This document shows positions 3,739 to 19,091 of a DNA stretch of 64,000 nt, in pieces. Where the stretch lies: the NCBI GenBank assembly GCA_963707215.1, contig CAVPPB010000001.1:480001-544000 (forward strand). Reading direction: 5' to 3'. The translations under genes were made by a program, and so were the position numbers. The first letter of the stretch is position 1. Each line of letters begins with the position of its first letter. The notes below the pieces were generated by a model that was given only the letters and a program-made list of their open reading frames with translations, was not told the origin of the DNA and made no database searches. This DNA comes from an uncultured Chloroflexia bacterium. Lineage in GTDB: Bacteria > Chloroflexota > Limnocylindria > Limnocylindrales > CSP1-4.

Positions 3739-4830
3739 TCACTCACCACCGGGCGTCAGCTCGACGGAACCCTTGCTGAAATCGGCGCCGACGACATCGC
3801 CCGTGATCGCATCGAGGGCGCGCTCGGCGAGGTCGGTCCGATACGCGTCGGCCGCCGGGGCAGCAGTGAGCAGGCCGGCATCGAGCATGACCGTGACCGT
3901 CTGGTCGAAGAGGACCGCGTCCATGAGGCCGACGCCATCCGGCGAAGGCCAGATCAGCGGGTTGACCTCGTTCATCTGCCAGGCCTGGTGGCTCCTCCCG
4001 GTCGCGCCGCCGGCCTGGAGCACGTAGTCGACGCAGACCGACACGTTCTCGCGGCAGAACATCCAACCGCGGAAGGCACCGGTCAGGAACCGGACGGCCA
4101 GGTCCTCGCCGTCACCCTCGGCAAGCCAGGCAGCGCGGGCGAAGATGCCGTCCTGGAGCATCGCCGTGCCCTCGCTGTTGTAGTCGATGACGTTGAGGTC
4201 CTCCGGTCGGTAGAGCTCGCCGGTGGCCGGATCGATCGTCTCGAGCACCAGGGCGTACTCGTTGTAGATCATCGCCTGGGCGACGTCGATCTCGCCGCCG
4301 AGGAAGGCGTCCATGTCGGTCTCCTGGAGGATCCTCTCGTAGTCGACGTCTGCCTCGAGGCCATACTGCCGGGCGGCAGCCGTGACCTCGTGCTCGTTGC
4401 CCGCACCCCAGAGGCCGACCTTGCGGCCCTCGAAATCCTCCGGGGAGGTGATGCCGCTGTCGGACCAGGCGACCGACAGCGTGCCGGAACGCTGGAAGAC
4501 CTGGGCGATGTTCACCAGGTCGGAGCCGCCCTCCCGCGCCTCGAGGACGCGTGGCAGCCACGAGACCGTGAATTCGGGGCCGTCCGGTCTCGAGCCAAGC
4601 TCCTGGGGAGCCACGTCAGGACCACCCGGGACGATCACCACGTCGAGCCCCTCCGCGGCCCAGTAGCCCTGCTTCAGGGCGGCGTAGTAGCCGGCGAACT
4701 GGGCCTGGGGCTGCCACTGGAGGAGGACGCGGACCGGCGTCAGCGGGCCCCCTGTCGCGGCATTCGAGCAGGCCGTGGCCGCCATGGCGATCGCCATGCC
4801 CATCGCCAGCACTCGGCGTGGAGCCATCAT
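3739..4830 (-). CDS. ABC transporter substrate-binding lipoprotein, NMT1/THI5-like
   Basis: Lipobox-like AATAC; LQWQPQAQFAGYYAA, GLDV, AQAMIYNE motifs; ATGA overlap with the upstream ATPase. Confidence 0.87.
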   Translation of the reverse strand: MMAPRRVLAMGMAIAMAATACSNAATGGPLTPVRVLLQWQPQAQFAGYYAALKQGYWAAEGLDVVIVPGGPDVAPQELGSRPDGPEFTVSWLPRVLEAREGGSDLVNIAQVFQRSGTLSVAWSDSGITSPEDFEGRKVGLWGAGNEHEVTAAARQYGLEADVDYERILQETDMDAFLGGEIDVAQAMIYNEYALVLETIDPATGELYRPEDLNVIDYNSEGTAMLQDGIFARAAWLAEGDGEDLAVRFLTGAFRGWMFCRENVSVCVDYVLQAGGATGRSHQAWQMNEVNPLIWPSPDGVGLMDAVLFDQTVTVMLDAGLLTAAPAADAYRTDLAERALDAITGDVVGADFSKGSVELTPGGE

Positions 4831-5735
4831 CGGGTCTTCCTGGGGCTATCCCACGCCACCGGCGCCGGGGCACCCTCGACGCCAGCCCCTGCGCCGTCGC
4901 CACGGAGCGCCGCGCGAACGGCCGTGACCAGGTCGAAGTAGTCCGGGATCGCCCTGGTGGCCTCGTTGCGGGGACGCGGCAGATCGATGTCGATCACGCG
5001 GGCGATGCGACCCGGTCGGGGGGTCATCACGGCGACCCGGGTCGACAGGAACACCGCCTCGGGAACCGAGTGGGTCACGAAGACGATGGTCGTCCCGGTC
5101 CGCTCCCAGATGCGGAGGAGCTCCTGGTTCAGCCGCTCTCGGCTCATCTCGTCGAGGGCGCCGAACGGCTCGTCCATGAGCAGGATCGCCGGCTCGAAGG
5201 CCAGGGCACGGGCGATCGCCACCCGCTGCTGCATGCCACCCGACAGCTGGTAGGGGTGGTGGCCGACGAACCCGGACAGCTCGACGAGCTCGAGCATCTC
5301 CCGTGCCCGTGCAGCCGTCCGGGCCTTGTCGTAGCCCAGGATCTCGAGCGGCAACCCGACGTTGCCCTCCACGGTCCGCCAGTCGAAGAGCACCGGGGAC
5401 TGGAAGACGATCCCGTAGTCACGGTCCAGGCGGGCGCGCTCGGCCGACTTGCCGTTGACCCGGATCGAGCCGGCGCTCGGTGCCGTCAGGTCGCCGACCA
5501 CCCGGAGCAGCGTCGACTTGCCGCAGCCGGAGGGACCGATGACCGAGACGAACTCGCCGCGCCGGATGTCAAGATCGATGTCCTCGAGCGCGCCGGTGCC
5601 GCCACCACCGGCAGGCCCGAAGCGCTTGCCGATCCCGCGGAGGCTCACGACCGCATCGTCAGGTCGGGATCGGGGCCGCCGATCCGTCTCGCCCGCGGGC
5701 CCCTCGGCCAGTGCCATCGCCAGCCCGCCGGCCAC
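4827..5735 (-). CDS. ABC transporter ATP-binding protein (TauB/SsuB-like)
   Basis: Walker A GPSGCGKST, signature LSGGMQQR, Walker B LLMDEPF, H-loop VTH. Start could be GTG 5735 or ATG 5717. Confidence 0.9.
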   Translation of the reverse strand: MAGGLAMALAEGPAGETDRRPRSRPDDAVVSLRGIGKRFGPAGGGGTGALEDIDLDIRRGEFVSVIGPSGCGKSTLLRVVGDLTAPSAGSIRVNGKSAERARLDRDYGIVFQSPVLFDWRTVEGNVGLPLEILGYDKARTAARAREMLELVELSGFVGHHPYQLSGGMQQRVAIARALAFEPAILLMDEPFGALDEMSRERLNQELLRIWERTGTTIVFVTHSVPEAVFLSTRVAVMTPRPGRIARVIDIDLPRPRNEATRAIPDYFDLVTAVRAALRGDGAGAGVEGAPAPVAWDSPRKTR

Positions 5736-7067
5736 CTAGCCGGTCACCGCCCGGTCGGCGATGTCGAGGGCCGCGTCGATGACCTCGAAGCCGTCGGCCA
5801 GCTGCTCCTCGGTGATGCAGAGGGGCGGGTTCGTGTGGATCGAGTTGTTGGCGAGCATCGCGTACACGCCGTGCTCGCGGAGGTACTTCCCGATGGCCTT
5901 CATCTCATCGCTGGAGCCGTTGAACGAGGTCATCGGCGTCCACGGTTCGTGGCTGCGGACGAGATCGATGATCCCGAAGAGCCCCAGATTCCGATGGGCG
6001 CCCACCGATGGATGCTTCGCCGCCAGCCGCTCATGGTGCGCCCGCATGACGGGCCCGAGCCGGGCGGCGTTCCCGATGAGGTCGTCCTCCTCGTAGACGC
6101 CGATCGTGGCCAGGGCGGCTGCAAGGCTCACCGGATGGCTGCTGTAGGTGAGCCCGCCGTAGAACATCTTCGTCTCGAAGGCCTCGGCGATCCCATGGCG
6201 CATGGCAACGGCGCCGAGCGGCAGGTATGAGCTGGTCAGGCCCTTGGCCATCGTCATCAGGTCGGGCACGACGTCCCAGTGATCGATGGCGAACCAGCGG
6301 CCGGTCCGGCCGAATCCCGCCATCACCTCATCGGCGACCATCAGGATGCCGTAGCGGTCGCAGATCTCACGGACGCCCTGGATGTAGCCGTCGGGTGGGA
6401 TGAGGATCCCGTTGGTCCCGACGACGGTCTCGAGGAAGACCGCCGCAATCGTGTGGGGACCCTCGTAGCGGACGACGTCCTCGAGCCCCTGGAGGCTCTC
6501 CTCGACGGGTCGGGGCTCCGCCTCGCCCCATCGATGCGTGTCCGGGTAGCGGACGACCCCGACCAGACCGGGCTCGTTGGCCCAGCGGCGGGGGTCGCCG
6601 GTCAGGGTCATGGCTCCCATCGTGGCCCCGTGGTAGGCCCGGTAGCGGGCCAGCACCTTGGTCCGACCCGTGTAATGGCGAGCCAGCTTGATCGCGTTCT
6701 CGATGGCCTCGGCGCCACCGAGGGTGAAGAAGACCTTGTCCAGGTCGCCGGGCATGATCTCCGCGAGCTTGGCCCCGAGCCGTCCGCGGATCTCGGTGGC
6801 GAAGGCCGGCTGGACGTACTGGAGCTGGGTCGCCTGCGCGGTCATCGCATCGACGACCCGGCGATCGCCGTGGCCGATGTTCACCGACATGAGCTGGCTG
6901 TTGAAGTCGAGGATCCGCTGGCCCTCCGGCGTGTAGATGTAGACGCCCTCCGCGTGATCGATGGCGATCGGATCGAGCGCCCCCTGCACGGACCAGGAGA
7001 AGAAGGTGTGGGCGCGGTTGAGGGCGACGATCTCCTCGGACGTCGCCTTGCCGGTCTGCGCGGTCAT
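5736..7067 (-). CDS. class III PLP aminotransferase (beta-alanine/taurine:2-oxoacid, PydD-like)
   Basis: GGAEAIE, YHGAT, ADEVMAGFGRTG, PDLMTMAKG (PLP Lys), GLTYSSHP; cluster context. Confidence 0.85.
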   Translation of the reverse strand: MTAQTGKATSEEIVALNRAHTFFSWSVQGALDPIAIDHAEGVYIYTPEGQRILDFNSQLMSVNIGHGDRRVVDAMTAQATQLQYVQPAFATEIRGRLGAKLAEIMPGDLDKVFFTLGGAEAIENAIKLARHYTGRTKVLARYRAYHGATMGAMTLTGDPRRWANEPGLVGVVRYPDTHRWGEAEPRPVEESLQGLEDVVRYEGPHTIAAVFLETVVGTNGILIPPDGYIQGVREICDRYGILMVADEVMAGFGRTGRWFAIDHWDVVPDLMTMAKGLTSSYLPLGAVAMRHGIAEAFETKMFYGGLTYSSHPVSLAAALATIGVYEEDDLIGNAARLGPVMRAHHERLAAKHPSVGAHRNLGLFGIIDLVRSHEPWTPMTSFNGSSDEMKAIGKYLREHGVYAMLANNSIHTNPPLCITEEQLADGFEVIDAALDIADRAVTG

Positions 7068-7228
7068 CGGTCACCTCACGGGAGGACGGGGAGGGCCGGC
7101 GTCGCGCCGGCCCGGCGCGAACGGGCGCACGGGATCACAGGAGCGATTACACCACAAGGCGGCCGGATCGAGCGCCCGGCGAGTCGCCGAGCGAACCTCC
7201 TGACGAGGCGATCCCGGATGGGGGAAAC

Positions 7229-7259
7229 GCGGAGGCCCCTCGGTGGGAGGGGCCTCCGC
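7229..7259 (-). terminator. intrinsic terminator-like hairpin after NCS1
   Basis: GCGGAGGCCCCTC-ggtgg-GAGGGGCCTCCGC perfect 13-bp stem, followed on the minus strand by GTTT. Confidence 0.6.
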
Positions 7260-7305
7260 TGCGAGCGTCAGGTGGCCGGGCAGCCGGCCTGACAGGGGAT
7301 GGCCG

Positions 7306-8940
7306 TCAAGCCGCGGTCGGAGCAGGCTCCGGCGCCGCTTCCTCGACCTCCTGGCCCTTCTGCGGGATGAAGCGCGCGAGGATCCAGTACAGGACGAATC
7401 CGACGAGGAAGGCCACGACCCAGCTGTAGTCGTACAGGTTGAAGATGAACTCGCCGAAGGCGAGATCCCACTTGAGGAACGGCAGCACGCCGGTCTCCGG
7501 GAACGGCCCCGTGCCACCGGCGGGGGTGTAGGCGCCGCCGATGGCGAAGAAGGCGCCGACCACGAGGGCGACGACCGCTCGCCAGTTCCAGCCGGCCGCA
7601 TAGCGGTAGATGCCGCTTTGCCGGTACAGGTCGGCCAGCTTCAGGTTCCGCCTGCGGATCAGCCAGTAGTCGGCGATCAGGACGCCGGCGATCGCACCGG
7701 TCAGTCCGCCGTAGGTGCCGAGCCAGGTGAAGATGTAGATGCTCGGGTCACTGAACAGGTACCACGGCATGATCAGGATGCCGATGATGCCCGTGATGAT
7801 CCCGCCGGTCCGGAAGCTGATCTTGCTCGGCCACGCGTTCGAGAAGTCGTAGGACGGGCTCACGACGTTCGCCGCCACGTTCGTGGACAGCGTCGCCAGG
7901 GCGAACGTGAACAGCATGAACAGGACGATGGGCACGCTGTCGATCTGGGCGACGAGCTGCGTCGGGTCCCAGATCGCTTCGCCGTAGACGACCACGGTGG
8001 CCGACACGGTGAGGACGCCGATCAGGGGGAACAGGGTCATCGTCGTCGGCAGCCCGAGTGTCTGGCCGAGGGCCTGCTCGCGCTGGCTGCGCCCGAACCG
8101 GGTGAAGTCGGGCATGTTCAGCGAGAGCGTCGACCAGAAGGCGATCATGCCCATCAGCGAGATGGGGAACACCGCCCAGAAGTCAGCGCCCCAGCCCAGG
8201 GTGCCGCTCTGGCTCACGACGGGCCCGAGGCCGCCGGCCTGGATGACCATCCAGATCATCAGGATGACGAAGACCGTCACCAGGAACGGGGCTGCCAGGT
8301 TCTCGAACCGCTTCACCGCGTTCATGCCGTACAGGATGATCGCGATGTTGGCGGCCCAGAAGAGCAGGAAGCTCAGCCACATCGTCCACGGCTGCGCGGC
8401 GGCATCGCCGAAGCCGATGGAGATGGTGGCGGCATCCGTCCAGAAGTTCCCTTCTCCAAGGACCCAGTTGAAGAAGGCGGCCCCGATCCCGAACACGGCA
8501 AGGGCGCCGATCCAGGTCTGGATGCCGAACCAGATGCAGGCGATCCCGGCCCGCAGGAGGGCGGGAAGGTTGGCACCCCAGACGCCGAATGCCGCCCGAG
8601 AGACCACCGGATATGGGATCCCGTACTTCGTGCCCGCGTGGCTGATCAGGAGCATCGGGATCAGGACGATGATGTTGCCGAGGGCGATCGTGAGGATCGC
8701 CTGGACCCAGTCCATCCCGAGGGCAATCAGGCCGGCGGCCAGCGCCCAGGACGGCAGGTTGATCGACATTGCGACCCAGAGGGCCAGGTAGTTGTAGGTC
8801 GTCCACGTGCGCTTGGGCAGCGCAGCGGGCGCGAGGTCGCCGTTGTGGAGCGGCGAGCCCTCCAGTGATGCGTCCGTCGCCGGGCTCAGCTCATGACGCC
8901 CGTCGGGATGGACGATCTCCTCCATCGTTGCCGCGGTCAT
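7306..8940 (-). CDS. NCS1 nucleobase:cation symporter-1 (PydP/allantoin/uracil permease-like)
   Basis: LHNGDLAP, RTWTTYNY, GTKYGIPYPV, WFGIQTWIG, LSLNMPDFTRF, NVAANVVSP; about 12 TMs; GGAGGGAG SD. Confidence 0.92.
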   Translation of the reverse strand: MTAATMEEIVHPDGRHELSPATDASLEGSPLHNGDLAPAALPKRTWTTYNYLALWVAMSINLPSWALAAGLIALGMDWVQAILTIALGNIIVLIPMLLISHAGTKYGIPYPVVSRAAFGVWGANLPALLRAGIACIWFGIQTWIGALAVFGIGAAFFNWVLGEGNFWTDAATISIGFGDAAAQPWTMWLSFLLFWAANIAIILYGMNAVKRFENLAAPFLVTVFVILMIWMVIQAGGLGPVVSQSGTLGWGADFWAVFPISLMGMIAFWSTLSLNMPDFTRFGRSQREQALGQTLGLPTTMTLFPLIGVLTVSATVVVYGEAIWDPTQLVAQIDSVPIVLFMLFTFALATLSTNVAANVVSPSYDFSNAWPSKISFRTGGIITGIIGILIMPWYLFSDPSIYIFTWLGTYGGLTGAIAGVLIADYWLIRRRNLKLADLYRQSGIYRYAAGWNWRAVVALVVGAFFAIGGAYTPAGGTGPFPETGVLPFLKWDLAFGEFIFNLYDYSWVVAFLVGFVLYWILARFIPQKGQEVEEAAPEPAPTAA

Positions 8941-9291
8941 TCACTCCCTCCGTCGTGTCGTCCCCCGCGGTTGATGCCACGGACCGACCGTATGGTCGTG
9001 CTCGGATCGATCTACGCTCGGTTCCTCCTCCTGCTGCGTCCAGTGCCGGGTGCGTCGCATCGTACGGGACCGTGCAAGCGTCGCGTGAGCGATCCGTGCA
9101 CAGGCGACCCGCCGCCGATGCCGAGCCGGTCGGGCCACCCGTGGACCGGATGGACCGTCCCGCCGGGAGGCGCACGCTGCGAGACCCGGACCGCACGGGT
9201 GTACGCTTCCGTCGCTCCCGCGGGGCGGCCGAGTCGTCCGGTGGGCCGTCGATATGCAGAGAGGACCGCAGGGTCGAGGAGGGTGACCGAG

Positions 9292-10146
9292 ATGCCCCGT
9301 ATCGTTCGAGGTGCACTGCTGCAGGCGACCTGGACCGGCGACAAGGAGTCGATGATCCAGAAGCACGAGGCGGCCGCCCACGAGGCGGCAGAGCAGGGCG
9401 CCCAGGTGATGCTCTTCCAGGAGCTCTTCTACGGGCCCTACTTCTGCCAGGTCCAGGACGCCCAGTACTACGCCTACACGGAACTGATCCCGGACGGTCC
9501 GACGACGAAGCGGATGCAGGACCTCGCGAAGCAGACCGGGCATGGTCCTCATCGTGCCGATGTACGAGGAGGACTCGACCGTCGTCCGGCATCTACTACA
9601 ACACGGCGGCGGTGATCGACGCCGACGGCTCGTACCTCGGCAAGTACCGCAAGACCCACATCCCGCACGTCAAGGGCTTCTGGGAGAAGTTCTACTTCCG
9701 GCCCGGCAACCTGGGCTATCCCGGTGTTCGAGACGGCCGTCGGCAAGGTCGGCGTGTACATCTGCTACGACCGCCACTTCCCCGAGGGCGCGCGGGCGCT
9801 CGGCCTCAACGGCGCGGAGATGGTCTTCATCCCCAGCGCCACCTCGCGCGGCCTGTCGGAGTACCTCTGGCGGATCGAGCAGGTCAGCCACGCGGTGGCC
9901 AACGGCTACTTCGTGGGCACGATCAACCGGGTCGGCATCGAGGCCGAGATCGGCGACGACGACTTCTACGGCCAGAGCTACTTCTGCGACCCGCGCGGCC
10001 AGTTCATCGGCTCGGTCGGCAGCCCGTACGACGAGGAGCTGATCGTCCGCGACATGGACCTCGACGTGGTCACCCAAGTCCGCCAGACCTGGCAGTTCTA
10101 CCGCGACCGCCGGCCCGACCAGTACGACGACCTCGTCCGACCCTAG
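9292..10146 (+). CDS. carbon-nitrogen hydrolase (beta-ureidopropionase/N-carbamoyl amidase-like), frameshifted in this sequence
   Basis: Catalytic triad pieces FQELFYGPYFC, GKYRKTHIP, YICYDRHFPE lie in different frames; shifts near 9540, 9580 and 9722; GAGGAGG SD. Confidence 0.85.
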
Positions 10147-10204
10147 CCCGACCCTGGGTCCGGCAGCCACCGTCCCGGCCTCGCGCCCGCACCGGAGGTA
10201 CCAG

Positions 10205-11213
10205 ATGGAATTCGGATTCACCCTCAAACCCGAGCACTCGCTCGAGCGCACACTCGCCCTGACCCGGCAGGCGGAGGCGGCCGGCTTCAGCCACGGCTGG
10301 CTGTTCGATTCGCACGTCCTCTGGCGCGACCCGTACCCGCTCCTGACGCTCATGGCCCAGGCGACGACGACGCTGCGGCTGGGGACCTGCGTCACCAACC
10401 CGGCAAGCCGCGAACCGTCCGTCACCGCCTCCACCCTGGCCGTGCTCTCGGAGCTGTCACGGTGGCCGTGTCGACCTGGGCATCGGGCGCGGGGACTCGG
10501 CCCGTCGGGTGCTCGGCAAGCCTCCGACCACGATCAAGGATCTCGAAGAGGCGGTCCACGTCATCCGGGCGCTCGTCGAGGGTCGGCCGATCGAGTTCGA
10601 GGGAACGATGCTCCAGTTCCCCTGGACGGCCGGCTGGCCGCTGCCGGTCTGGATCGCGGGCTACGGCCCGGTCGCGCTCCGCCTGACGGGACGGATCGCC
10701 GACGGGGCGATGCTCCAGATCGGCGACCCGGACCTCATCCGCTGGTTCGTCGGCCAGGTCCGCGGATCGGCGCGGGAAGCGGGTCGCGACCCAGCCTCGG
10801 TCCGGGTCATGGCGGCGGCCCCGGCCCACGTCGGCGACCTTGCCGCGGCCCGCGATCGCACCCGCTGGTTCCCGGCCCTCGTCGGCAACCACGTCGTCGA
10901 CCTCGTCAACCGCTACGAGGGCGAGCTGCCCGAGGCCCTCACCCACTATGTCCGCGGACGCGAGGGCTACGACTACCTCCATCATGCCGAGGTCGGCAGC
11001 GACAATGCGGAGTTCGTGACGGACGACATCGTCGACCGTTTCGCGATCGTCGGCGACGTCGACGCCCACGTCGCCAAGCTGCTCGAGCTGCGGGCGGCCG
11101 GGGTCGACCAGTTCAACCTCTACCTCATGAACGGAGATGAGGAGGCCCAGCTCGAGTACTACGCTAGCGAGATCATCCCTCGCTACCGAGCAGCCGCCGC
11201 CAGCGACGCCTGA
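10205..11213 (+). CDS. LLM-class F420-dependent oxidoreductase (TIGR03842-like), one frameshift near 10460
   Basis: GWLFDSHVLWRDP, LGTCVTNP, GIGRGDS, WIAGYGP, RWFPALVGNHVVD, YDYLHH, GVDQFNLYLM; GGAGG SD. Confidence 0.85.
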
Positions 11214-11345
11214 CCAGAGCCCTCCTCGAGCTCGCAGCGATGCGCGCGGAGGCCGATCCGCGCGGGCACGATAGCCCTTCCGTCAGGCTCGACGACGGGA
11301 CCCTTCATCGGCCAACATCGCCTTGAACCGATCGAAGGAGGATGC

Positions 11346-11537
11346 ATGGCACGGCTGTCGTTGCGTCGGGCCGACCCCTGGTGGGACGTCGAGGGTCGGG
11401 CCGTGCGCCGGGACCGCACCCATCGCCGGGTCGTGGGCGGGATCGCGTTCGCTCTGGCCATCGGAGCCTGCGGCCTCACGGCGGCGACCTGGGCCCGGCA
11501 GCTCGAGCCCCTCGTCGCGCGGCTCCTGGCCGGCTGA
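11346..11537 (+). CDS. small single-TM hypothetical protein (63 aa)
   Basis: Strong GAAGGAGG SD; basic N-terminus, then hydrophobic VVGGIAFALAIGACGLTAA. Confidence 0.6.
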   Translation: MARLSLRRADPWWDVEGRAVRRDRTHRRVVGGIAFALAIGACGLTAATWARQLEPLVARLLAG

Positions 11538-11618
11538 CAGACCCGCTCGCCCTGCGCATCAGCCACGCCGGGCGCGTCGCCGGGACCCCTATCCTCTGGG
11601 CCACACCCGGAGGCAGGC

Positions 11619-13106
11619 GTGAGCACCCCAGACCAGCCGCCCAGCATCCACGACCCGAACGCTCCCACGTTCCGCGTCCTGTCCGAGGAACAGCGCCGGC
11701 GCATCCACGACGCAGCCCTGGCCGTGCTCGAGGACCCGGGCGTCCGGATCACCACGAACGCGGCTCGTGACATCCTCCTGGGCGCCGGGGCGACGACCGG
11801 CCCGGCCGACACGGTGCGGATCCCGTCCCGCCTCGTCGCCGAGGCCCTGGCGGTCGCTCCGAGGGCCTTTGCCCTGTATGACCGCGATGGCCGGGAGCGG
11901 CTCCGGCTGGGTGAGGGTCGGGCCTACTTCGGGACGGGCGTCACGGCCCTCGCCTACGAGGACCCGGCGACCGGAGCCGTCGCCGACTTCACGCTCGACG
12001 ACGTCGCGGCGCTCGCTCGCCTGACGGACGCCCTGCCGAACCTCGACTTCATCGCCACGCCGGGGGTCGTCCGGGCCGGCCCGGACCTGCCCCAGGCGAT
12101 CGTCAACCAGCGCGAGTTCCTGGCGATGCTCACCGGGACGACCAAGCCGATCATGCCGCTCATCGAGGACGCGACCGCCCTCGCGGACATCGTCGAGATG
12201 GCGGCGATCGTCGCCGGTGGGCGCGAAGCCCTCCGCGAGCGTCCCTTCGTGGTGCCGTACCTGAACTCGGTCACCCCACTCGTCTTCAACGCGGAGACCC
12301 TCGACAAGCTCATCCTCTCCGTCGACCATGGGCTGCCGGTCGTCTGCCAGGCGGCCCCGACGCTCGGCGCGACCGGACCCGTGACCCCGGCCGGGACCGC
12401 CGTCCTGTGCGCCGCCGAGACCCTGGCTGGCCTGGTCCTGGCCCAGGCACGCCGACCCGGCGCCCCGTACATCACCGGCTCGATGCCGATGGCGATGGAC
12501 ATGCGGACCGGCGACGTGACCGGCGGCGGCGCCCCGGGTCTCCTGGTCTACCTCGCCGGGGTCGAGATGGCCCGCCACTGGGGCCTCCCGCAGGTCGGGT
12601 CCGGGGGTTCCGCCGATTCGAAGATCGCCGACGAGCAGGGAGCCCGAGAGGCGGGTATCGCGATCGTCCAGGACGTGCTCGAAGGAGTCGACCTCTCCTT
12701 CGACGTCGGCTCGCTGGAGATGGGCCTGGCGACCTCGGCCATCCAGGTCGTCATGGCCGACGAGGCGATCGAGGTCGGCCGGGGCCTGCTCCGCGGCATC
12801 CGGACGGACGACGAGGCGCTCGCCGTCGACGTCATCCGCGAGGTCGGCATCGGCGGGCACTTCCTGGCGACCCGTCACACGGCCGACCACCAGCGGGAGC
12901 TCTGGATGCCGACGCTGACGAGCTGGGAGTCCCGGCGGGCCTGGGAGGCCGACGGGTCCCGCTCGATGCGGGAACGGGCCCGCGAGCGAGCGATCGAGCT
13001 GATCGGGACCCACCGGCCGCCGGAGCTGCCGGATCCAGTGCGCGCGGCCCTCGACGAGGTCGTGGAGCGTCGTCGGGCCGTGGCGACCAGAGCAGCCAGC
13101 GCCTGA
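11619..13106 (+). CDS. trimethylamine methyltransferase (MttB/MtgB) superfamily protein, non-pyrrolysine
   Basis: LSEEQ..IHDAALAVLE..GV, NSVTPL, GATGPVT.AG, MDMRTG, GLP...ADSK.ADEQ, LAVDVIREVG.GGHFL..RHT; GGAGG SD, GTG start; no in-frame TAG. Confidence 0.85.
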   Translation: MSTPDQPPSIHDPNAPTFRVLSEEQRRRIHDAALAVLEDPGVRITTNAARDILLGAGATTGPADTVRIPSRLVAEALAVAPRAFALYDRDGRERLRLGEGRAYFGTGVTALAYEDPATGAVADFTLDDVAALARLTDALPNLDFIATPGVVRAGPDLPQAIVNQREFLAMLTGTTKPIMPLIEDATALADIVEMAAIVAGGREALRERPFVVPYLNSVTPLVFNAETLDKLILSVDHGLPVVCQAAPTLGATGPVTPAGTAVLCAAETLAGLVLAQARRPGAPYITGSMPMAMDMRTGDVTGGGAPGLLVYLAGVEMARHWGLPQVGSGGSADSKIADEQGAREAGIAIVQDVLEGVDLSFDVGSLEMGLATSAIQVVMADEAIEVGRGLLRGIRTDDEALAVDVIREVGIGGHFLATRHTADHQRELWMPTLTSWESRRAWEADGSRSMRERARERAIELIGTHRPPELPDPVRAALDEVVERRRAVATRAASA

Positions 13107-13225
13107 GGCTCGATCGACCGACGGCGAGGCCCCGGCGGGTCGCGCGCCGCCATGCCCGAGGCGTATCCTCGTGGCACTCGCGACCCTTGTAGCGGCCCCC
13201 GGCCGCGGCGCCCAGGAGGATCGGC

Positions 13226-14641
13226 ATGCGAACGCTCATCAAGAACGGGACGGTCGTCACGGCTGAGGGTTCATACGACGCCGACGTGCTCGTCGAGGAC
13301 GAGCGGATCGCCGCGATCCTGCGGCGATCCTCGGGAGCGGTCGAGACCGCCCTGGCGGGGCTCGTCGTCGACCAGACGATCGACGCGACCGACAAGTACG
13401 TGATCCCCGGCGGCATCGACGCCCACACCCACATGGAGCTTCCGTTCGGCGGGACCTTCGCCAAGGACACCTTCGAGACCGGGACGCGCGCCGCCGCCTT
13501 CGGCGGGACGACGAGCATCGTCGACTTCGCGGTGCAGCCCAAGGGCGGATCGCTCCGCGAGGGCCTCGACACCTGGATGGCCAAGGCCGAGGGCAACGCC
13601 GTCCTGGACTACGGCTTCCACATGATCATGAGCGACGTCCGTGACGACTCGCTGGCCGAGATGGACCAGCTGGTCGCCGAGGGTATCCCGGACTTCAAGC
13701 TGTTCACTGCCTACCCGGGCGTCTTCCTCAGCGACGACGGGGCGATCTTCCGGGCGATGCAGCAGACCGCCGGCAACGGCGGCCTGATCATGATGCACGC
13801 CGAGAACGGCCCGACCATCGACATCATCGCCAACCAGACGGCCGAGGGCGGCACGACGGACCCCATCGGCCATGGCCTGGCTCGCTACTCGATCCTCGAG
13901 GGCGAGGCCACCAACCGGGTGATCCGCCTGGCCGAGGCGGCGAACGTACCCGTGTACATCGTCCACCTCTCGTCGCGGGACGCCCTCGAGGCGGTCAAGG
14001 GAGCCCGTGACCGGGGCGCCAAGGCCTTCGCCGAGACGTGCCCCCAGTACCTCTTCCTGTCGCTCGACGACATGGGCAACGGCTTCGAGGGCGCCAAGTT
14101 CGTGTGCTCGCCGCCGCTCCGCCCGAAGGACCACCAGGAGGACCTCTGGACCGGGCTCATCAAGGACGACCTCCAGCTCGTCGGGACCGATCACTGCCCG
14201 TTCGACTTCCACGGTCAGAAGGAGCTCGGTCGGGGCGACTTCAGGAAGATCCCGAACGGCCTGCCGGGCGTCGAGGAGCGGGTCGATCTCATCCACGACG
14301 GCGGCGTGGTCGGTGGCAGGATCAGCCGTGAGCGGTGGGTCGAGGTCGTCTCGACGGCGCCGGCCCGGGTCTTCGGGATGTACCCGCAGAAGGGCGCGAT
14401 CGCGGTCGGCTCGGACGCCGACATCGTCGTCTACGACCCGAACCGACGCCACGTCCTCAGCGCGGCGACCCATCACATGGACGTCGATTACTCCTGCTAC
14501 GAGGGGCGCGAGGTCCAGGGCGGCTCGGACGTGGTGATGAGTCGGGGCACCGTGGTCGTCCGCGACGGCGAGTGGGTCGGACCGGCCGGCCACGGCCGGT
14601 TCATCAAGCGGGCACCCGCCGATTTCGTGCGGGTCTCCTGA
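13226..14641 (+). CDS. hydA: dihydropyrimidinase / D-hydantoinase
   Basis: PGGIDAHTH, AAAFGGTT, DFKLF (carbamylated Lys), MHAENG, VHLS, ETCPQYL, CSPPLR, GTDHCPF, IPNGLPG; AGGAGG SD. Confidence 0.93.
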   Translation: MRTLIKNGTVVTAEGSYDADVLVEDERIAAILRRSSGAVETALAGLVVDQTIDATDKYVIPGGIDAHTHMELPFGGTFAKDTFETGTRAAAFGGTTSIVDFAVQPKGGSLREGLDTWMAKAEGNAVLDYGFHMIMSDVRDDSLAEMDQLVAEGIPDFKLFTAYPGVFLSDDGAIFRAMQQTAGNGGLIMMHAENGPTIDIIANQTAEGGTTDPIGHGLARYSILEGEATNRVIRLAEAANVPVYIVHLSSRDALEAVKGARDRGAKAFAETCPQYLFLSLDDMGNGFEGAKFVCSPPLRPKDHQEDLWTGLIKDDLQLVGTDHCPFDFHGQKELGRGDFRKIPNGLPGVEERVDLIHDGGVVGGRISRERWVEVVSTAPARVFGMYPQKGAIAVGSDADIVVYDPNRRHVLSAATHHMDVDYSCYEGREVQGGSDVVMSRGTVVVRDGEWVGPAGHGRFIKRAPADFVRVS

Positions 14642-14663
14642 TCGACGGGGCCCGGACGCCGCC

Positions 14664-15627
14664 TTGACCGGCACCGCGTCGACGTCCTCGGGCGAGCGTG
14701 GCCCCAGCCTGCCCGGGCCGGGCGAGGTCGTCGTCCTCGACGGGGGATTGGCGACGGAGCTGGAGGCCCGCGGTCACGACCTCTCGGACCGCCTCTGGTC
14801 GGCCCGACTGCTCCGTGACGACCCCGCCGCGATCGAGGCCGTCCACGCCGGCTACTTCGGGGCGGGGGCCCGGGTCGCCACCACCGCCAGCTACCAGGCG
14901 ACGGTCGAGGGGTTCGCCGCCGTCGGGATCGCCCGCGACGAGGCGCTGGACCTGATCCGCCGGAGCGTCGATCTGGCCCGCAGGGCCCGTGACCGGGCCG
15001 TCGCCCGAGCGGTAGCCGCCGGAGACACCCGCCCCAGGCTCGTGGCCGGCTCCGTCGGGCCCGTACGGGGCGATGCTCGCCGACGGCTCCGAGTACACCG
15101 GTGCCTACGACCTGACCGAGGCCGAGCTGGTGGCCTTCCACCGGCCCCGCGTGGAGGCCCTCGTCGAGGCCGGCGCCGATCTCCTCGCCTTCGAGACGAT
15201 CCCGAGCGCAACGGAGGGCGCTGCCCTGGTCCGGCTCCTCGACGAGCTGCCCGGCGCCCGGGCCTGGCTGTCGTTCCAATGCCGCGACGGGGAGCGCACG
15301 GCCAGGGGCGAGCCGATCGAGGAGGCCGTGGCCGTGACCGCGGACCAGCCCCGGATCGTGGCCGTCGGCGTGAACTGCACGGCGCCAGGGGACATGCCGA
15401 CGCTGCTGGCGGCGGCTCGCCGGGCGACCACGCTCCCTCTCGTCGCCTATCCCAACGCCGGACGCGGCTGGGACGCCGAGAGCCGGACCTGGCTCGCCCC
15501 CGACGGCGTCCCCTTCGACCCGGCGACGGCGGCGGGCTGGCGCGAGCTCGGCGCGACCTGGCTTGGCGGCTGCTGCGGCGTCGGGCCGTCCGGGATCGCG
15601 GCCCTGGCGAGCCGGCTGGCGGCCTGA
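14664..15627 (+). CDS. mmuM: homocysteine S-methyltransferase (MmuM-like), one frameshift near 15068
   Basis: VLDGGLATELE, LWSA, TASYQ, AGSVGP, DGSEYTG, DLLAFETIP, GVNC, YPNAG, Zn-binding GGCCG. Confidence 0.85.
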
Positions 15628-15658
15628 CCGAGAGCGTCGATGGACCCGGTCGGGTCAC

Positions 15659-16750
15659 TCAGGCCCCGCCGCCTCCGAGGACGACCGGCAGCCGTCGAGC
15701 CCCCCAGGTACCGGGCTCGGCCTCGAAGACGCCGGCGATCCGGGTCCCGCACCTGCCGCAGCGGCCCTCGGCGTCCAGGCCCCAGTGCCCGAGGTCGTAC
15801 CAATCGCGCTCGATGAGCAACGCGTCGCAGGTCGGGCATCGCGTGCTCTGGCCATCGCGATCGTGGGTATTGCCGGTGTAGGCATAGAGGATGCCGTTGG
15901 CCCGGGCGATCTCGCGGGCACGCCGCAGGGTCGACGGTTGCGTCGGCGGCGTGTCGAGCATCCGGAAGTCGGGATGGAACGCGGTGAAATGGACCGGCAC
16001 GTCGGGCCCCAGCTCGTCGACGATCCAGCGCGTCATCGCGTCGGTCTCGGCCTCGTCGTCGTTCCAGCCGGGGATGACCAGGTTCGTGATCTCGACCCAG
16101 ACATCGGTCTCCCGGCAGAGGTAGCGGAGGGTATCCCTGACCGGCCCGAGATGGCCTGCGGTGAGATCGGCGTAGAAGCGCTCGCTGAAGCCCTTGAGGT
16201 CGACGTTGGCAGCGTCGATGTGCTGGTACAGCTCGGCTCGCGGCTCGGGGTCGATGTAGCCGGCCGTGACCGCCACGGCCTTGAGCCCTCGTTCGCGGCA
16301 GGCATCGGCCACGTCGATCGCGTACTCCATGAAGACGACCGGGTCGTTGTAGGTGAAGGCGACGCTCCGGCAGCCGAGCCGGACCGCCGTCTCGGCGATC
16401 AGCTCCGGGGAGGCCGCGTCGGCGAGGGTATCCAGCTGGCGGCTCTTGCTGATGTCCCAGTTCTGGCAGTAGCGGCAGGCCAGGTTGCAGCCGGCCGTGC
16501 CGAAGGAGAGGACCGACGTACCCGGCAGGAAGTGGTCGAGTGGCTTCTTCTCGATCGGGTCGACGCAGAAGCCCGACGAGCGGCCGTAGGTCGTCAGAAC
16601 GATCGCATCGCCGAAGCGGGCCCGGACGAAGCACATGCCCCGCTGACCCTCGCCGAGGCGGCAGTGCCTGGGACAGACGTCGCATTGGACGCGACCGTCG
16701 TCGAGGCGATGCCAGTGGCGGGTGGGGTGGGTCGTCCCGAGCTCCATCAT
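15659..16750 (-). CDS. amrS: AmmeMemoRadiSam system radical SAM enzyme
   Basis: N-terminal CDVCPRHC..GMC, DPIEKKPL, SFGTAGCNLACRYCQNWDISK (CxxxCxxC), AFTYNDP, NVDLK, HFTAFHP. Confidence 0.88.
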   Translation of the reverse strand: MMELGTTHPTRHWHRLDDGRVQCDVCPRHCRLGEGQRGMCFVRARFGDAIVLTTYGRSSGFCVDPIEKKPLDHFLPGTSVLSFGTAGCNLACRYCQNWDISKSRQLDTLADAASPELIAETAVRLGCRSVAFTYNDPVVFMEYAIDVADACRERGLKAVAVTAGYIDPEPRAELYQHIDAANVDLKGFSERFYADLTAGHLGPVRDTLRYLCRETDVWVEITNLVIPGWNDDEAETDAMTRWIVDELGPDVPVHFTAFHPDFRMLDTPPTQPSTLRRAREIARANGILYAYTGNTHDRDGQSTRCPTCDALLIERDWYDLGHWGLDAEGRCGRCGTRIAGVFEAEPGTWGARRLPVVLGGGGA

Positions 16751-16837
16751 CGGTGGCCTTCCGGGTCCATCATGCTCCTGTCCGGCCCGCCGGTCATCGG
16801 CCGAGCGGACCCGATCCGCAGCCCGGAGGCAGCTTCG

Positions 16838-17146
16838 ATGCACGTCACCCTGGTGTCCGTCCACGTCAAGCCCGAGCACCTCGACGAGTACCTCGACGAG
16901 CTGCGGGCGAACCACGAGGCGTCGGTCCGCGAGCCCGGCAACCTCCGCTTCGACGTCCTGCGCTCGCCCGAGGACCCGACCAGGTTCCTGCTTTACGAGG
17001 CCTACATGGACGCCGACTCGGCCGCGGCCCACAAGGAGACGGCTCACTACCTCCGCTTCCGGGACACGGTCGCCGACTGGCAGGTCGAGCCGCGGACCGG
17101 CGTCCGCTGGGACGGGCTCTACCCGGAGGTCGGGGCCGGATCGTGA
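16838..17146 (+). CDS. antibiotic biosynthesis monooxygenase (ABM) family protein, LsrG-like
   Basis: VHVKP, NHEASVREPGNLRFDVL, FLLYEAY, AHKETAHY; GGAGG SD. Confidence 0.85.
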   Translation: MHVTLVSVHVKPEHLDEYLDELRANHEASVREPGNLRFDVLRSPEDPTRFLLYEAYMDADSAAAHKETAHYLRFRDTVADWQVEPRTGVRWDGLYPEVGAGS

Positions 17147-18375
17147 CGCGGGATCCGGCCGTGCAGGCACACTGGTCGTTCATCCTCGCCCGGGTCCCCC
17201 GGATCGACTTCGGCCCCGGCCGGATCGAGACGCTGCCGGAGACGATCGCCGGCCACGGTCGGCGAGCCCTGCTCGTCACCGGCGTTCGCTCGTTCCGCAC
17301 GTCGGAGCGCTGGCCGTGGCTGCTCGGAGCCCTCGACGAGCGTGGCATCGGCGTCGAGACGGCGACGATCGGGGGCGAGCCGTCGCCAGCGATGATCGAC
17401 CGGGCGGTCGCCGACCTGCGCGACGAGGGCATCGAGGTCGTCGTCGGCATCGGCGGGGGCAGCGTCCTCGACGGGGCGAAGGCGATCGCCGGTCTCCTGC
17501 GGACCGGCACGTCCGCCGGAGACCATCTCGAGGGGGTCGGGCCCGGGCTCCCCTACCCGGGCCCGGCGGTCCCGTTCATCGCCGTTCCGACGACCGCGGG
17601 AACGGGCAGCGAGGCGACGAAGAATGCCGTCCTGAGCGAGGTCGGGCCGGACGGCTTCAAGCGCTCGTTCCGCGACGATCGGCTCGTGGCGGTCCAGGCG
17701 ATCGTCGACCCGGATCTGCTCCTCGGCTCGCCGCCGTCCGTCGTGTCGGCCAACGGGATGGACGCCCTGACCCAGCTTCTCGAGTCGTATGTCTCGAGGC
17801 GCCGCGATCCGGTCACCGACGCCCTCGCCCGCCGCGGCCTGGAGGCCGCCCGGGACGGGCTGGTGCCATGGTTCCGGGCCGCAGCGTCGGGAGCTCCGGT
17901 CGAGGCGAGCCTCGGGGCACGGGCAGCCATGTCACTGGCCGCCCTGCTGTCCGGCATCTGCCTGGCCAACACCGGGCTCGGCGTCGTCCATGGCCTGGCC
18001 GCGGCGCTGGGCGGGACCTTCCCGATCCCTCACGGCGCGGCTTGCGGCGCGACGCTCGTGGCCGGCACCGCGACGAACATCCGGGCGCTCGAGGAGCGAG
18101 TGCCGGGCGATCAGGCGCTCGACCGTTACGCGGCCGCCGGGCGGCTCCTGGCAGGCCTGCCCGAGAGGACCGACGACGCCGACGCCCGGGCGGCCCTGCT
18201 CGCCACCCTCGACGGCTGGCGGCAGGCACTCGAGGTCCCCGGGCTGGGGACCTGGGGCGTCGGCGAAGCGGACGTCGATCGGCTGGTGGCTGCGTCGCGG
18301 GGCAGCTCCATGCGGACGAACCCGCTCGAGCTCACCGACGCCGAGGTCGCCGCGGTCGTCCGGACCAGCCTGTAG
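17143..18375 (+). CDS. iron-containing alcohol dehydrogenase
   Basis: GGGSVLDGAK, VPTTAGTGSEATKNAV, GMDALTQLLE, GLGVVHG, PHG; GTGA overlap with the ABM gene. Confidence 0.88.
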   Translation: MTRDPAVQAHWSFILARVPRIDFGPGRIETLPETIAGHGRRALLVTGVRSFRTSERWPWLLGALDERGIGVETATIGGEPSPAMIDRAVADLRDEGIEVVVGIGGGSVLDGAKAIAGLLRTGTSAGDHLEGVGPGLPYPGPAVPFIAVPTTAGTGSEATKNAVLSEVGPDGFKRSFRDDRLVAVQAIVDPDLLLGSPPSVVSANGMDALTQLLESYVSRRRDPVTDALARRGLEAARDGLVPWFRAAASGAPVEASLGARAAMSLAALLSGICLANTGLGVVHGLAAALGGTFPIPHGAACGATLVAGTATNIRALEERVPGDQALDRYAAAGRLLAGLPERTDDADARAALLATLDGWRQALEVPGLGTWGVGEADVDRLVAASRGSSMRTNPLELTDAEVAAVVRTSL

Positions 18376-18397
18376 GGTCGCGGCCGGCCCGACCACG

Positions 18398-18820
18398 CTA
18401 GACGCCCTCGATCGGCTCCCAGAGTTCGATCTTGTTGCCCTCGGGGTCGACGACCCAGCCGAACCGACCGAACTCCATCTCCTCGATCCCGTCGACGACG
18501 GCGCAGCCGTCCCGGCGCAGCTGTTCGAGCATCGCGTCGAGATCGGCGACCCGGAAGTTGACCATGTACGGGGCCTCGGATGGCGCGAAGTAGGTCGTGT
18601 CGGCCGGGAACGGGGCGACCACGGTCGAGCCGGGCGAGCCGTCGGTCTGCTGCCAGGGCACGACGATCACGCCGGTCCGATCGAGTGGCAGGCCCAGGCG
18701 TTCGACGTACCAGGCCTGCAGCGCCGCCGGGTCGGCGGCCTTCCAGAAGACCCCGCCGATACCGGTCACCCGCTGGCGGGTCACCCCGGATGGATCGGTC
18801 GCCGCGGGTCGGTCAGCCAT
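18398..18820 (-). CDS. VOC / glyoxalase family protein
   Basis: RVTGIGGVF, WY..LG, MVNFRVADLD, FGRFGWVVDPEGNKIELWEP. Confidence 0.88.
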   Translation of the reverse strand: MADRPAATDPSGVTRQRVTGIGGVFWKAADPAALQAWYVERLGLPLDRTGVIVVPWQQTDGSPGSTVVAPFPADTTYFAPSEAPYMVNFRVADLDAMLEQLRRDGCAVVDGIEEMEFGRFGWVVDPEGNKIELWEPIEGV

Positions 18821-19037
18821 GGCCGGCGGGTCCGGGTCCGGACGGGTGCTCGACGAACTTGACCATGCGACGCCTCATCGGTACCGACCCTGCCGCGCGG
18901 CCACGACTCGAAGGCGACCGTTGTCTCGCCACCGCGGGACCGGCCCACTCGAGCCACGGACTGCGTGCCCTGAGGACGCAACGATAGCGACTCGGCCACC
19001 GGGAGGCCATCGGTCCGATCTGGATCGCCCGGCAAGC

Positions 19038-19071
19038 CGAAGGCCCGCTCGGTGGACCGGGCGGGCCTTCG
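19038..19071 (-). terminator. hairpin terminator after the S8 peptidase
   Basis: CGAAGGCCCGCTCGGT / ACCGGGCGGGCCTTCG inverted repeat about 20 nt past the stop codon. Confidence 0.55.
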
Positions 19072-19091
19072 AGTGACTGCGACCGGGTTCG

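Follow-up and report, generated by a model that had tools for sequence, protein, structure and literature searches.

Reductive pyrimidine catabolism proceeds through dihydropyrimidine dehydrogenase, dihydropyrimidinase and beta-ureidopropionase, and is completed by a beta-alanine aminotransferase. The locus described here, which lies in a 64,000-nt stretch of DNA from an uncultured Chloroflexia bacterium (the window), resembles this route in that a dihydropyrimidinase equivalog, a C-N hydrolase-family amidase, a class-III aminotransferase and an NCS1 permease are encoded in one divergent cluster. It differs in that an NAD(P)H dihydropyrimidine dehydrogenase gene is missing from the locus, its place being taken in most genomes of the class by one for a TIGR03842 luciferase-like (LLM) protein, and in that its putative amidase fails the curated beta-ureidopropionase models.

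Two methyltransferase genes set the locus further apart. The first encodes an MttB protein akin to Desulfitobacterium hafniense MtgB of the MtgB/MtgC/MtgA systems: it matches PF06253 over the full length, lacks pyrrolysine and can be aligned with MtgB from end to end. Unlike in those systems, it has no corrinoid protein or second methyltransferase as a neighbor, and the four residues that contact glycine betaine are replaced. The characterized members of this family named in PMC12478193 and PMC13080624 all act on trimethylamine or quaternary amines. The second gene encodes a PF02574 protein. In the aerobe Ruegeria pomeroyi, the MtgBCDE system, or split methionine synthase, joins an MttB-family demethylase to a PF02574 homocysteine-binding protein by way of a common corrinoid protein (PMC12478193). 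The PF02574 protein of the window is instead an MmuM equivalog and not of the BHMT/MetH-module type, a distinction drawn from model scores. It is closest to the YagD-type S-methylmethionine:homocysteine methyltransferases, with intact orthologues scoring 358 bits on NF007020 (cut-off 215), yet it is tied to hydA and not to an S-methylmethionine permease, and this model is matched in only 11 of 46 genomes of the family.

The account that we favor, with moderate confidence, is that of a class-conserved nucleobase-breakdown core that later acquired two methyltransferase genes in independent events, and whose frame shifts are assembly errors.

Organization of the locus

All genes named in a preliminary description of this DNA are present in the order and orientation given there, in both divergent blocks (Table 1), and mmuM does start 22 nt past the hydA stop. 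Spacers of 81 and 119 nt separate MttB from its plus-strand neighbors.

Table 1. Features of the locus, with positions in the window and supporting model matches
Feature	Position	Strand	Evidence
NMT1/THI5-type periplasmic solute-binding protein, NitT/TauT-like ABC system	3739..4830	-	PF09084, 95.2 bits
ABC transporter ATPase	4827..5735	-	PF00005, 112 bits; NCBIfam matches all under cut-off
Class-III (omega/beta-alanine-type) aminotransferase	5736..7067	-	PF00202, 294.5 bits; NF004718, 534.9 bits (cut-off 472)
NCS1 nucleobase/hydantoin:cation symporter	7306..8940	-	PF02133, 392.5 bits; TIGR00800, 388.8 bits (cut-off 353.1)
C-N hydrolase, N-carbamoyl amidase type (candidate beta-ureidopropionase)	~9292..10146	+	PF00795 pieces in successive frames
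TIGR03842 luciferase-like (LLM) F420-class oxidoreductase	10205..11213	+	PF00296 across two frames; TIGR03842, 326 bits on a piece
Conserved 63-aa single-pass membrane ORF	11346..11537	+	Coding-type substitutions; no Pfam match
Non-pyrrolysine MttB-superfamily methyltransferase (MT1 component), intact	11619..13106	+	PF06253, 317.6 bits, full length
Dihydropyrimidinase/D-hydantoinase (hydA), intact	13226..14641	+	TIGR02033, 560.5 bits (cut-off 393.25)
MmuM-type homocysteine S-methyltransferase (mmuM)	14664..15627	+	PF02574 across two frames; NF007020, 221.5 bits, C-terminal piece

On the minus strand, homologues of the solute-binding protein (52 to 66% identical) occupy the same block in relatives, and the NCS1 permease is 81% identical in L101, from a sister genus. 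No membrane permease gene adjoins the ABC block in this genome (G000). In the metagenome contig L088, a BPD_transp_1 gene sits between the ATPase and aminotransferase genes; no close copy of it was found in G000.

The 63-aa ORF carries the motif DP[WFY]WD..G followed by a hydrophobic helix, and is maintained, with substitutions of the coding type, in four sequences that bear MttB, namely the window, the same-genus genome G001 and the metagenome contigs L088 and L089. Further tblastn matches lie between LLM and hydA in MttB-less loci of the family (L070, L071, L072 and L073, the last with three copies), as well as beside the cluster but outside this gap in L068 and L075. Judged by its conservation, this small membrane ORF is real.

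A cluster shared across Limnocylindria

The locus is the version, in this Limnocylindrales bacterium, of a cluster kept across the class Limnocylindria. TIGR03842 is matched in 127 of 151 genomes of the class, a set that includes seven unpublished genomes, all positive, such that the count without them is 120 of 144. In a survey of 20 LLM-centered loci, each from a different genome of the class, a C-N hydrolase gene was found in 18, hydA in 17 and a class-III aminotransferase gene in 16; the aminotransferase matches range from 30 to 88% identity, with 82 to 88% reached only by copies from family f1. This recurrence, together with the TIGR03842 LLM, of a hydantoinase, an N-carbamoyl amidase, an aminotransferase and NCS1 bears out the earlier view of the core as being of the reductive-pyrimidine type. 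In other lineages, the space between LLM and hydA is taken up by unrelated genes, for a glyoxalase, a class I/II aminotransferase, AhpC, DUF7712 or an MFS transporter.

An intact LLM orthologue (L073) reaches 428 bits on TIGR03842 (cut-off 295.45), a model graded as 'hypoth_equivalog' only, and G000 encodes the F420 biosynthesis protein CofD (294 bits; cut-off 257). There are also three DHO_dh-family genes elsewhere in G000, among which a canonical dihydropyrimidine dehydrogenase could be found.

We consider it unlikely, though deserving of attention, that the core is not for pyrimidines but serves other cyclic amides or N-carbamoyl compounds, for example 5-substituted hydantoins or imported dihydro-ring compounds, with the LLM catalyzing a different step or acting on a different substrate. 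The C-N hydrolase lends itself to such a reading, as it passes no beta-ureidopropionase model: it scores 265.7 bits on TIGR03381, under the cut-off of 410.25, and the nearest PDB entry to its intact orthologue in L073 is N-carbamoylputrescine amidohydrolase (205 bits), ahead of beta-ureidopropionase (174 to 177 bits). The PDB matches of hydA fit D-hydantoinase equally (E 5e-147), the grade of the TIGR03842 model and the DHO_dh-family genes point the same way, and a literature search found no paper linking F420 to these enzymes. Against this, hydA passes the dihydropyrimidinase equivalog model; the NCS1 permease, hydantoinase, N-carbamoyl amidase and class-III aminotransferase reproduce the textbook route step by step; and the tightly linked LLM would fill the sole missing redox step.

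Probable separate histories of MttB and mmuM

It had been suggested that MttB and MmuM form a single methyl module of the ring-opening pathway, a proposal that the distribution of the two genes does not support. MttB is absent from all 20 LLM-centered loci, and no match at E<=1e-110 exists in 400 other Chloroflexota genomes; at this position, it occurs only in G000, G001, L088 and L089. The copies in G001, L088 and L089 are about 80% identical (81% between the window and G001), with divergence biased toward third codon positions, and in at least three sequences that include flanking genes (G000, G001 and L088), purifying selection keeps the gene at precisely this site. In genus g18 (L101), MttB is cut to a 44-codon 5′ stump while the remaining cluster, including mmuM, is kept. 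MttB thus looks like a late insert confined to a narrow clade, having presumably entered between the small membrane ORF and hydA.

The mmuM gene shows a different distribution. It adjoins hydA in 6 of the 11 genomes matched by NF007020 (G000, G001, G105, G018, G010 and G019) and likewise in G167 and L088, and in five genomes from several genera (G105, G167, G010, G019 and G018) it follows hydA although MttB is absent. The BHMT and MetH models give only 53 to 77 bits on the mmuM orthologues, against cut-offs of 338 to 1011, which together with the equivalog score suggests a sulfonium-donor (S-methylmethionine) enzyme rather than an acceptor of methyl-corrinoid. We propose that, in the common ancestor of a number of genera, mmuM came to lie 3′ of hydA; it would encode an ordinary S-methylmethionine/AdoMet:homocysteine methyltransferase. 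The genome also has a normal MetH, with a second PF02574 gene beside it.

As for MttB itself, its top PDB match is MtgB (2qne/9yce; E 5.5e-61), and its score on TIGR02369, 353.5 bits, is under the cut-off of 525. The MtgB residues Y97, R312, H348 and F356, listed as the glycine-betaine site in PMC13080624, align with V108, V326, a gap and G369, arguing for some other substrate, most plausibly another quaternary amine. G000 holds eight MttB matches, of which the window protein is 29 to 39% identical to the other seven. There is no corrinoid-binding protein in or near the locus, and the only stand-alone-type B12-binding match of the genome that adjoins MttB genes lies ∼350 kb away (C1:843013-843354); MttB would most likely use the corrinoid protein encoded there, as would its seven paralogues.

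A single pathway, in which MttB demethylates beta-alanine betaine or an N-methylated pyrimidine or hydantoin and MmuM methylates homocysteine, therefore appears improbable to us. The arrangement does have features that would suit it: the six plus-strand genes are all co-oriented and closely spaced, and MttB is retained in place in G001, L088 and L089 and accompanied by mmuM in every locus long enough to tell, all of which fits co-expression. MttB also lacks the MtgB glycine-betaine residues. A flow of methyl groups from an MttB-family protein to homocysteine also has its precedent in Ruegeria, such that the idea of routing MttB-derived methyl groups into methionine is not new (PMC12478193); the earlier statement that no described pathway links these modules stands for the pyrimidine part but not for the link between MttB and homocysteine. 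What weighs against one pathway is the absence of MttB from the surveyed loci, its stump in an otherwise retained cluster, the five genomes with hydA-adjacent mmuM and no MttB, and the sulfonium-donor type of MmuM. In addition, the locus encodes neither a corrinoid protein nor a pterin-binding methyltransferase or further demethylase, and the substrates of the characterized MttB members named in PMC12478193 and PMC13080624 are confined to trimethylamine and quaternary amines.

Frame shifts in three of the plus-strand genes

Three genes, those for the C-N hydrolase, the LLM and MmuM, are out of frame as assembled here. Comparison with G001, in which each of the three occupies one frame, places indels at 9541, 9581-9584 and 9719 in the C-N hydrolase gene, dividing it among three reading frames; the LLM frame shifts at ∼10456-10460, and one additional base at 15063 leaves mmuM in two frames. 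All five are net +1. MttB has no internal stop and hydA has no indel relative to G001, nor do the broken genes contain in-frame stops once their frames are corrected. Third codon positions account for 62 to 94% of the divergence from G001 in the broken genes and for 62 to 72% in the intact MttB and hydA.

We read these five frame shifts as assembly insertion errors and not as gene decay, based on the third-position divergence, the in-frame genes of G001 and two genome-wide observations. First, the 546 stop-less same-strand frame switches in the genome comprise 398 of the +1 type and 148 of the -1/+2 type, although a control on G001 loci gave 6 candidates in 54.7 kb, meaning that the false-positive rate of the method is not small. 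Second, when 10 random +1 sites were inspected, six split one Pfam domain, three were gene boundaries and one was ambiguous; one of the six falls in one of only two PF00579 (class-I Trp/Tyr-tRNA synthetase) loci. Contigs from sequencing runs agree in part, with the T at 9719 missing from 15 contigs of four runs and five gap letters in the single 285-nt contig across 9541-9584, though these contigs are only 88 to 99% alike and may derive from relatives of this strain.

That the C-N hydrolase, LLM and mmuM genes are instead young pseudogenes of a decaying pathway, in which MttB and hydA persist, receives little credence from us. Frame shifts are clustered (32% of inter-site gaps are <500 nt, with 8% expected) and within the window also affect other accessory genes, for a GH31 glycosidase and cystathionine beta-synthase, while neighboring genes are intact and rpoB and rpoC are free of them. 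Moreover, the ABC permease gene is missing from G000, and L088 has different lesions of its own, its C-N hydrolase gene being interrupted by a stop codon and its LLM gene by a -1 shift, so some real decay is possible. Yet the uniform +1 direction and its genome-wide excess, the equally split tRNA synthetase gene, the corrected frames without stops or a relaxed codon-position pattern, and a five-contig assembly at 84.8% completeness speak for assembly error.

A proposed route for the core

For the conserved core, we propose that the NCS1 permease would import a nucleobase or hydantoin, whose ring is probably reduced by the F420-class LLM standing in for dihydropyrimidine dehydrogenase and would then be opened by the dihydropyrimidinase. 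The C-N hydrolase would decarbamoylate the ring-opened product, and the class-III aminotransferase would transaminate the resulting beta-amino acid. With its case drawn from gene neighborhood, the proposal that the LLM acts as an F420-dependent ring reductase is a more solid lead than an integrated methyl pathway.

Gene content and layout of the locus

Pfam and NCBIfam scans of the window bore out the gene order proposed in the preliminary description (see table). The small membrane-protein gene noticed there proved real, being conserved, with substitutions of coding type, in the same-genus relative G001 and in the metagenome contigs L088 and L089. The assembly itself comprises 3.26 Mb in five contigs, with ~70% G+C and an estimated completeness of 84.8%.

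Features of the locus in window coordinates
Feature	Position	Strand	Basis and remarks
NMT1-type binding protein	3739-4830	minus	Pfam/NCBIfam scans
ABC ATPase	4827-5735	minus	Pfam/NCBIfam scans
Class-III aminotransferase	5736-7067	minus	NF004718 above cut-off
NCS1 permease	7306-8940	minus	TIGR00800 above cut-off
C-N hydrolase	~9292-10146	plus	Pfam/NCBIfam scans; three frames
TIGR03842 luciferase-like protein (LLM)	10205-11213	plus	Pfam/NCBIfam scans; two frames
63-aa membrane ORF	11346-11537	plus	GGAGG box upstream
Non-Pyl MttB	11619-13106	plus	PF06253
Dihydropyrimidinase (hydA)	13226-14641	plus	TIGR02033, 560.5 bits
mmuM	14664-15627	plus	Pfam/NCBIfam scans; two frames

Downstream of mmuM come genes for a radical SAM protein, an Fe-alcohol dehydrogenase (Fe-ADH), a glyoxalase-family protein and a subtilase, but none for a corrinoid protein. 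An Rfam scan of window positions 1-22000 (E<=1) returned just two chance-level matches and no riboswitch upstream of MttB; likewise, a promoter and terminator scan of 8800-16000 found none, a result of little weight at 70% G+C.

On the minus strand, the ABC ATPase gene directly abuts the aminotransferase gene (4827-7067). In L088 (3210-6454), the two are separated by a gene for a BPD_transp_1 permease and by a further ORF, and other loci of the family show gaps of ~1 kb at this junction, leaving room for such genes. Because neither intervening gene of L088 has a close copy in the genome under study, its ABC system is without a membrane part.

Frame shifts in the assembly

Three plus-strand genes of the window, encoding the C-N hydrolase, the LLM and MmuM, are split between frames, and we asked whether this reflects real gene decay or assembly error. 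G001 is colinear with window 9487-19710 at ~83% identity and carries each of these genes in one frame; relative to it, the window shows net +1 insertions at 9541, 9581-9584, 9719, 10456-10460 and 15063. Genome-wide, GC3-based frame segmentation returned 546 same-strand switches without a nearby stop, 398 of them +1 and 148 of them -1/+2; the method yields false positives, of which such a one-sided +1 excess is not expected. Applied to loci of G001, it gave six candidates in 54.7 kb and none in the 27 kb syntenic with the window.

From the 138 +1 sites with long flanks, ten were sampled at random. A single Pfam domain is interrupted at six of them (NiFe hydrogenase, class-I Trp/Tyr tRNA synthetase, M20 peptidase, T2SSE ATPase, AAA_26 and carboxyltransferase), three fell at gene boundaries and one was unclear. 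Trp/Tyr tRNA synthetase is indispensable for a free-living cell; the genome has two PF00579 loci, one of which is the split synthetase gene, on contig C3. In the broken genes, 62 to 94% of the differences from G001 fall at third codon positions, a share equal to or above that of the intact MttB (62%) and hydA (72%) genes. Contigs from four estuary-metagenome runs also cover part of the region: 15 of them lack the T at 9719, and a 285-nt contig across 9541-9584 aligns with five gap letters. These contigs may derive from relatives, and they are scarcely or not at all informative at 10456-10460 and 15063.

Gene decay would accord with the clustering of frame-shift sites in the genome, with the damage to other accessory genes of the window (a GH31 glycosidase and a cystathionine beta-synthase) and with clean rpoB and rpoC genes, although the latter do not discriminate at the estimated error rate. 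It would also accord with L088, where two of the three split genes have apparent lesions of their own: the C-N hydrolase gene (7634-8485) has an in-frame stop (DAQ*YAYTE, with Y in relatives) and the LLM gene a -1 shift at ~8732. Weighing both sides, we consider the five frame shifts very probably to be assembly errors. Beyond those at 9541, 9581, 9719, 10456 and 15063, the window has insertion sites at ~31279, 31625, 33289, 33424 and 33756. With hundreds of single-base insertions in this assembly, apparent pseudogenes need checking before any biological reading.

A conserved core cluster, probably of reductive-pyrimidine type

The hydA product scores above the dihydropyrimidinase model (560.5 bits with TIGR02033, cut-off 393.25) and matches a D-hydantoinase/dihydropyrimidinase in the PDB at E 5e-147. 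For the C-N hydrolase, the best curated model is TIGR03381 (N-carbamoylputrescine amidase), at 265.7 bits and under its cut-off of 410.25; its PDB matches include carbamoylputrescine amidohydrolase (205 bits) and beta-ureidopropionases (174-177 bits). The LLM gene belongs to TIGR03842 (cut-off 295.45), its larger piece reaching 326 bits and the intact orthologue of locus L073, from the family genome G105, 428 bits.

Known reductive pyrimidine clusters share the dihydropyrimidinase with this locus but differ in the redox step: no DHO_dh-family gene, as expected for an NAD(P)H-dependent dihydropyrimidine dehydrogenase, was found at the locus, its place being taken by the TIGR03842 LLM. Since three DHO_dh-family genes lie elsewhere in the genome, a canonical dehydrogenase could still be encoded there. 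The F420 gene looked for, CofD, is present (TIGR01819, 294.2 bits, cut-off 257.45), making F420 plausible in this organism. In the literature searched, no F420-dependent pyrimidine reductase is described and TIGR03842 is not named; a search for F420 together with pyrimidine-catabolic enzymes likewise gave nothing relevant.

TIGR03842 is widespread in the class Limnocylindria, being present in 127 of 151 genomes, a count that takes in seven unpublished genomes, all positive (120/144 without them). We compared its surroundings in 20 genomes of five families, taking from each one LLM-centred stretch of at most 20 kb; contig ends cut six of these stretches. The C-N hydrolase gene was found in 18 of the 20, hydA in 17 and the class-III aminotransferase gene in 16; mmuM occurred in two. 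For mttB, whose recurrence at such loci the preliminary description had proposed to check, the count was 0/20. Taken together, the profile matches and this conservation best support a reading of the C-N hydrolase, LLM, hydA and aminotransferase genes as a conserved reductive-pyrimidine-type core, with the F420-class LLM as the probable ring reductase.

The junction between LLM and hydA is variable, judging from the gene orders compared. In other lineages it holds unrelated genes, namely glyoxalase-family genes or those for a class I/II aminotransferase, AhpC, DUF7712 or an MFS transporter. The small membrane ORF sits there in four MttB-less loci of the family (L070, L071, L072, L073), while in L068 and L075 it is matched next to the cluster and outside the LLM-hydA interval; by its distribution, the ORF is assigned to the core and not to MttB. 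Its 63-aa product has a DP[WFY]WD..G motif, one helix and no Pfam match, and in G105 (L073:10890-11613) the ORF is present in three tandem copies, all between LLM and hydA.

mmuM pairs with hydA independently of MttB

Intact mmuM orthologues reach 358.9 bits (L073) and 357.8 bits (L088) with NF007020 (cut-off 215), and the C-terminal piece of the window gene alone reaches 221.5 bits; by these scores the intact orthologues are clearly predicted to be MmuM equivalogs. We also considered a corrinoid-linked homocysteine module of the MetH N-terminal or BHMT-like type and rejected it, as the MetH and BHMT models stay far under their cut-offs: the intact orthologues score 53-61.5 bits with NF005718 (cut-off 338) and 72-77 bits with TIGR02082 (cut-off 1010.85).

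Within the family, 11 of 46 genomes are positive for NF007020. The gene adjoins hydA in six of these (G000, the genome under study, and G001, G105, G018, G010, G019); in the other five it is unlinked and more divergent (48-53% identity). Outside this set, the same adjacency is seen in the related genome G167 and in L088. Because several MttB-less loci pair hydA with mmuM, the pairing is older and wider than MttB and independent of it. A literature search for homocysteine S-methyltransferase with hydantoinase found nothing relevant.

MttB, a probable later insertion in the cluster

MttB is full-length (PF06253, 317.6 bits, profile positions 27-497 of 500), and its open frame has no internal stop, hence none of the in-frame TAG that encodes pyrrolysine in true trimethylamine methyltransferase; with TIGR02369 it scores 353.5 bits, under the cut-off of 525. 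Its alignment with D. hafniense MtgB runs over the full length (E 5.5e-61). Published work on MtgB names Y97, R312, H348 and F356 as glycine-betaine-binding residues (PMC13080624); in these columns MttB has V108, V326, a gap and G369, where the H348 column is aligned with low confidence and a +2 offset between paper and PDB chain was deduced from matching residue types. As none of the four residues named there is matched, we rejected an MtgB-type glycine betaine enzyme. The pocket-aligned residues of MttB itself are kept in the G001 and L088 orthologues.

Neither a cognate corrinoid protein nor a second methyltransferase was found beside MttB, whose neighbours are hydA, mmuM, the radical SAM protein and the Fe-ADH. 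The nearest PF02310 match lies ~350 kb off, at C1:843013. Seven further MttB matches of the genome, 29-39% identical to this one, form two arrays (C1:843013-849580 and C2:129375-134310), one of which, with four paralogues, adjoins the only MttB-adjacent B12-binding protein of the genome (C1:843013). None of the three pterin-binding PF00809 genes (C2:89771, C3:766706, C3:528944) adjoins either array.

Among 400 other Chloroflexota genomes, MttB has no match at E<=1e-110. A single-protein search found two loci in genome contigs and three in metagenome contigs, and a large protein collection yielded homologues of 50-66% identity, four of them labelled as Actinomycetota MAGs. MttB occupies the same position in G001, L088 and L089, the L088 cluster being complete and including mmuM. 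Best matches of relatives to other MttB paralogues (L014, L015) were also checked and are not near hydA-type genes. At the locus L101 (G018:C17, genus g18), synteny with the window takes in NCS1, mmuM and Fe-ADH; of MttB, only the ribosome-binding site and first 44 codons (77% identical) are left, directly upstream of hydA. A common ancestor therefore had MttB, and g18 lost it while keeping the cluster. The remnant (8957-9200) reads stop-free and in frame into the hydA start codon, so that hydA may have gained an N-terminal extension or the old MttB ribosome-binding site. The 8.5-kb metagenome contig L090 has just an internal MttB piece (417-1175; residues 54-306, 81% identical), whose flanks do not match the window; either this fragment stands in a different context or the contig is chimeric.

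One methyl-transfer pathway or two accessory genes

To our knowledge, the substrates of MttB superfamily members in aerobes are mostly unknown. The gene neighbourhoods best support the view that MttB and mmuM are two independent accessory methyltransferase genes, which would have been added to the core later. The preliminary description had instead joined both to the core in one pathway for methylated nucleobases or beta-alanine betaine. Both genes do stand at the locus in G001 and L088, but the pairing of hydA with mmuM does not depend on MttB. In Ruegeria, according to PMC12478193, methyl groups flow from MttB to homocysteine via a shared corrinoid protein; the window locus differs in the type of its homocysteine enzyme, and its surroundings encode no corrinoid component. 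We regard the integrated pathway as unlikely.

An equally doubtful proposal is that this MttB clade represents a new substrate class of the superfamily, which would demethylate beta-alanine betaine or a cationic N-methylated nucleobase imported by NCS1, the product feeding F420-dependent ring reduction and opening and the methyl group passing via a shared corrinoid protein to one-carbon or methionine metabolism. It draws on the clade's own conserved pocket residues and on its seat in a beta-alanine-yielding operon; a literature search for beta-alanine betaine demethylation found nothing relevant. The inserted MttB is a further orphan member of its superfamily; its unusual location gives a slight clue to the substrate and does not amount to a pathway. 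If the core works as we infer, pyrimidine degradation in most Limnocylindria would rely on a luciferase-like, F420-dependent enzyme for ring reduction and not on dihydropyrimidine dehydrogenase, and the uncharacterised family TIGR03842 would gain a function.
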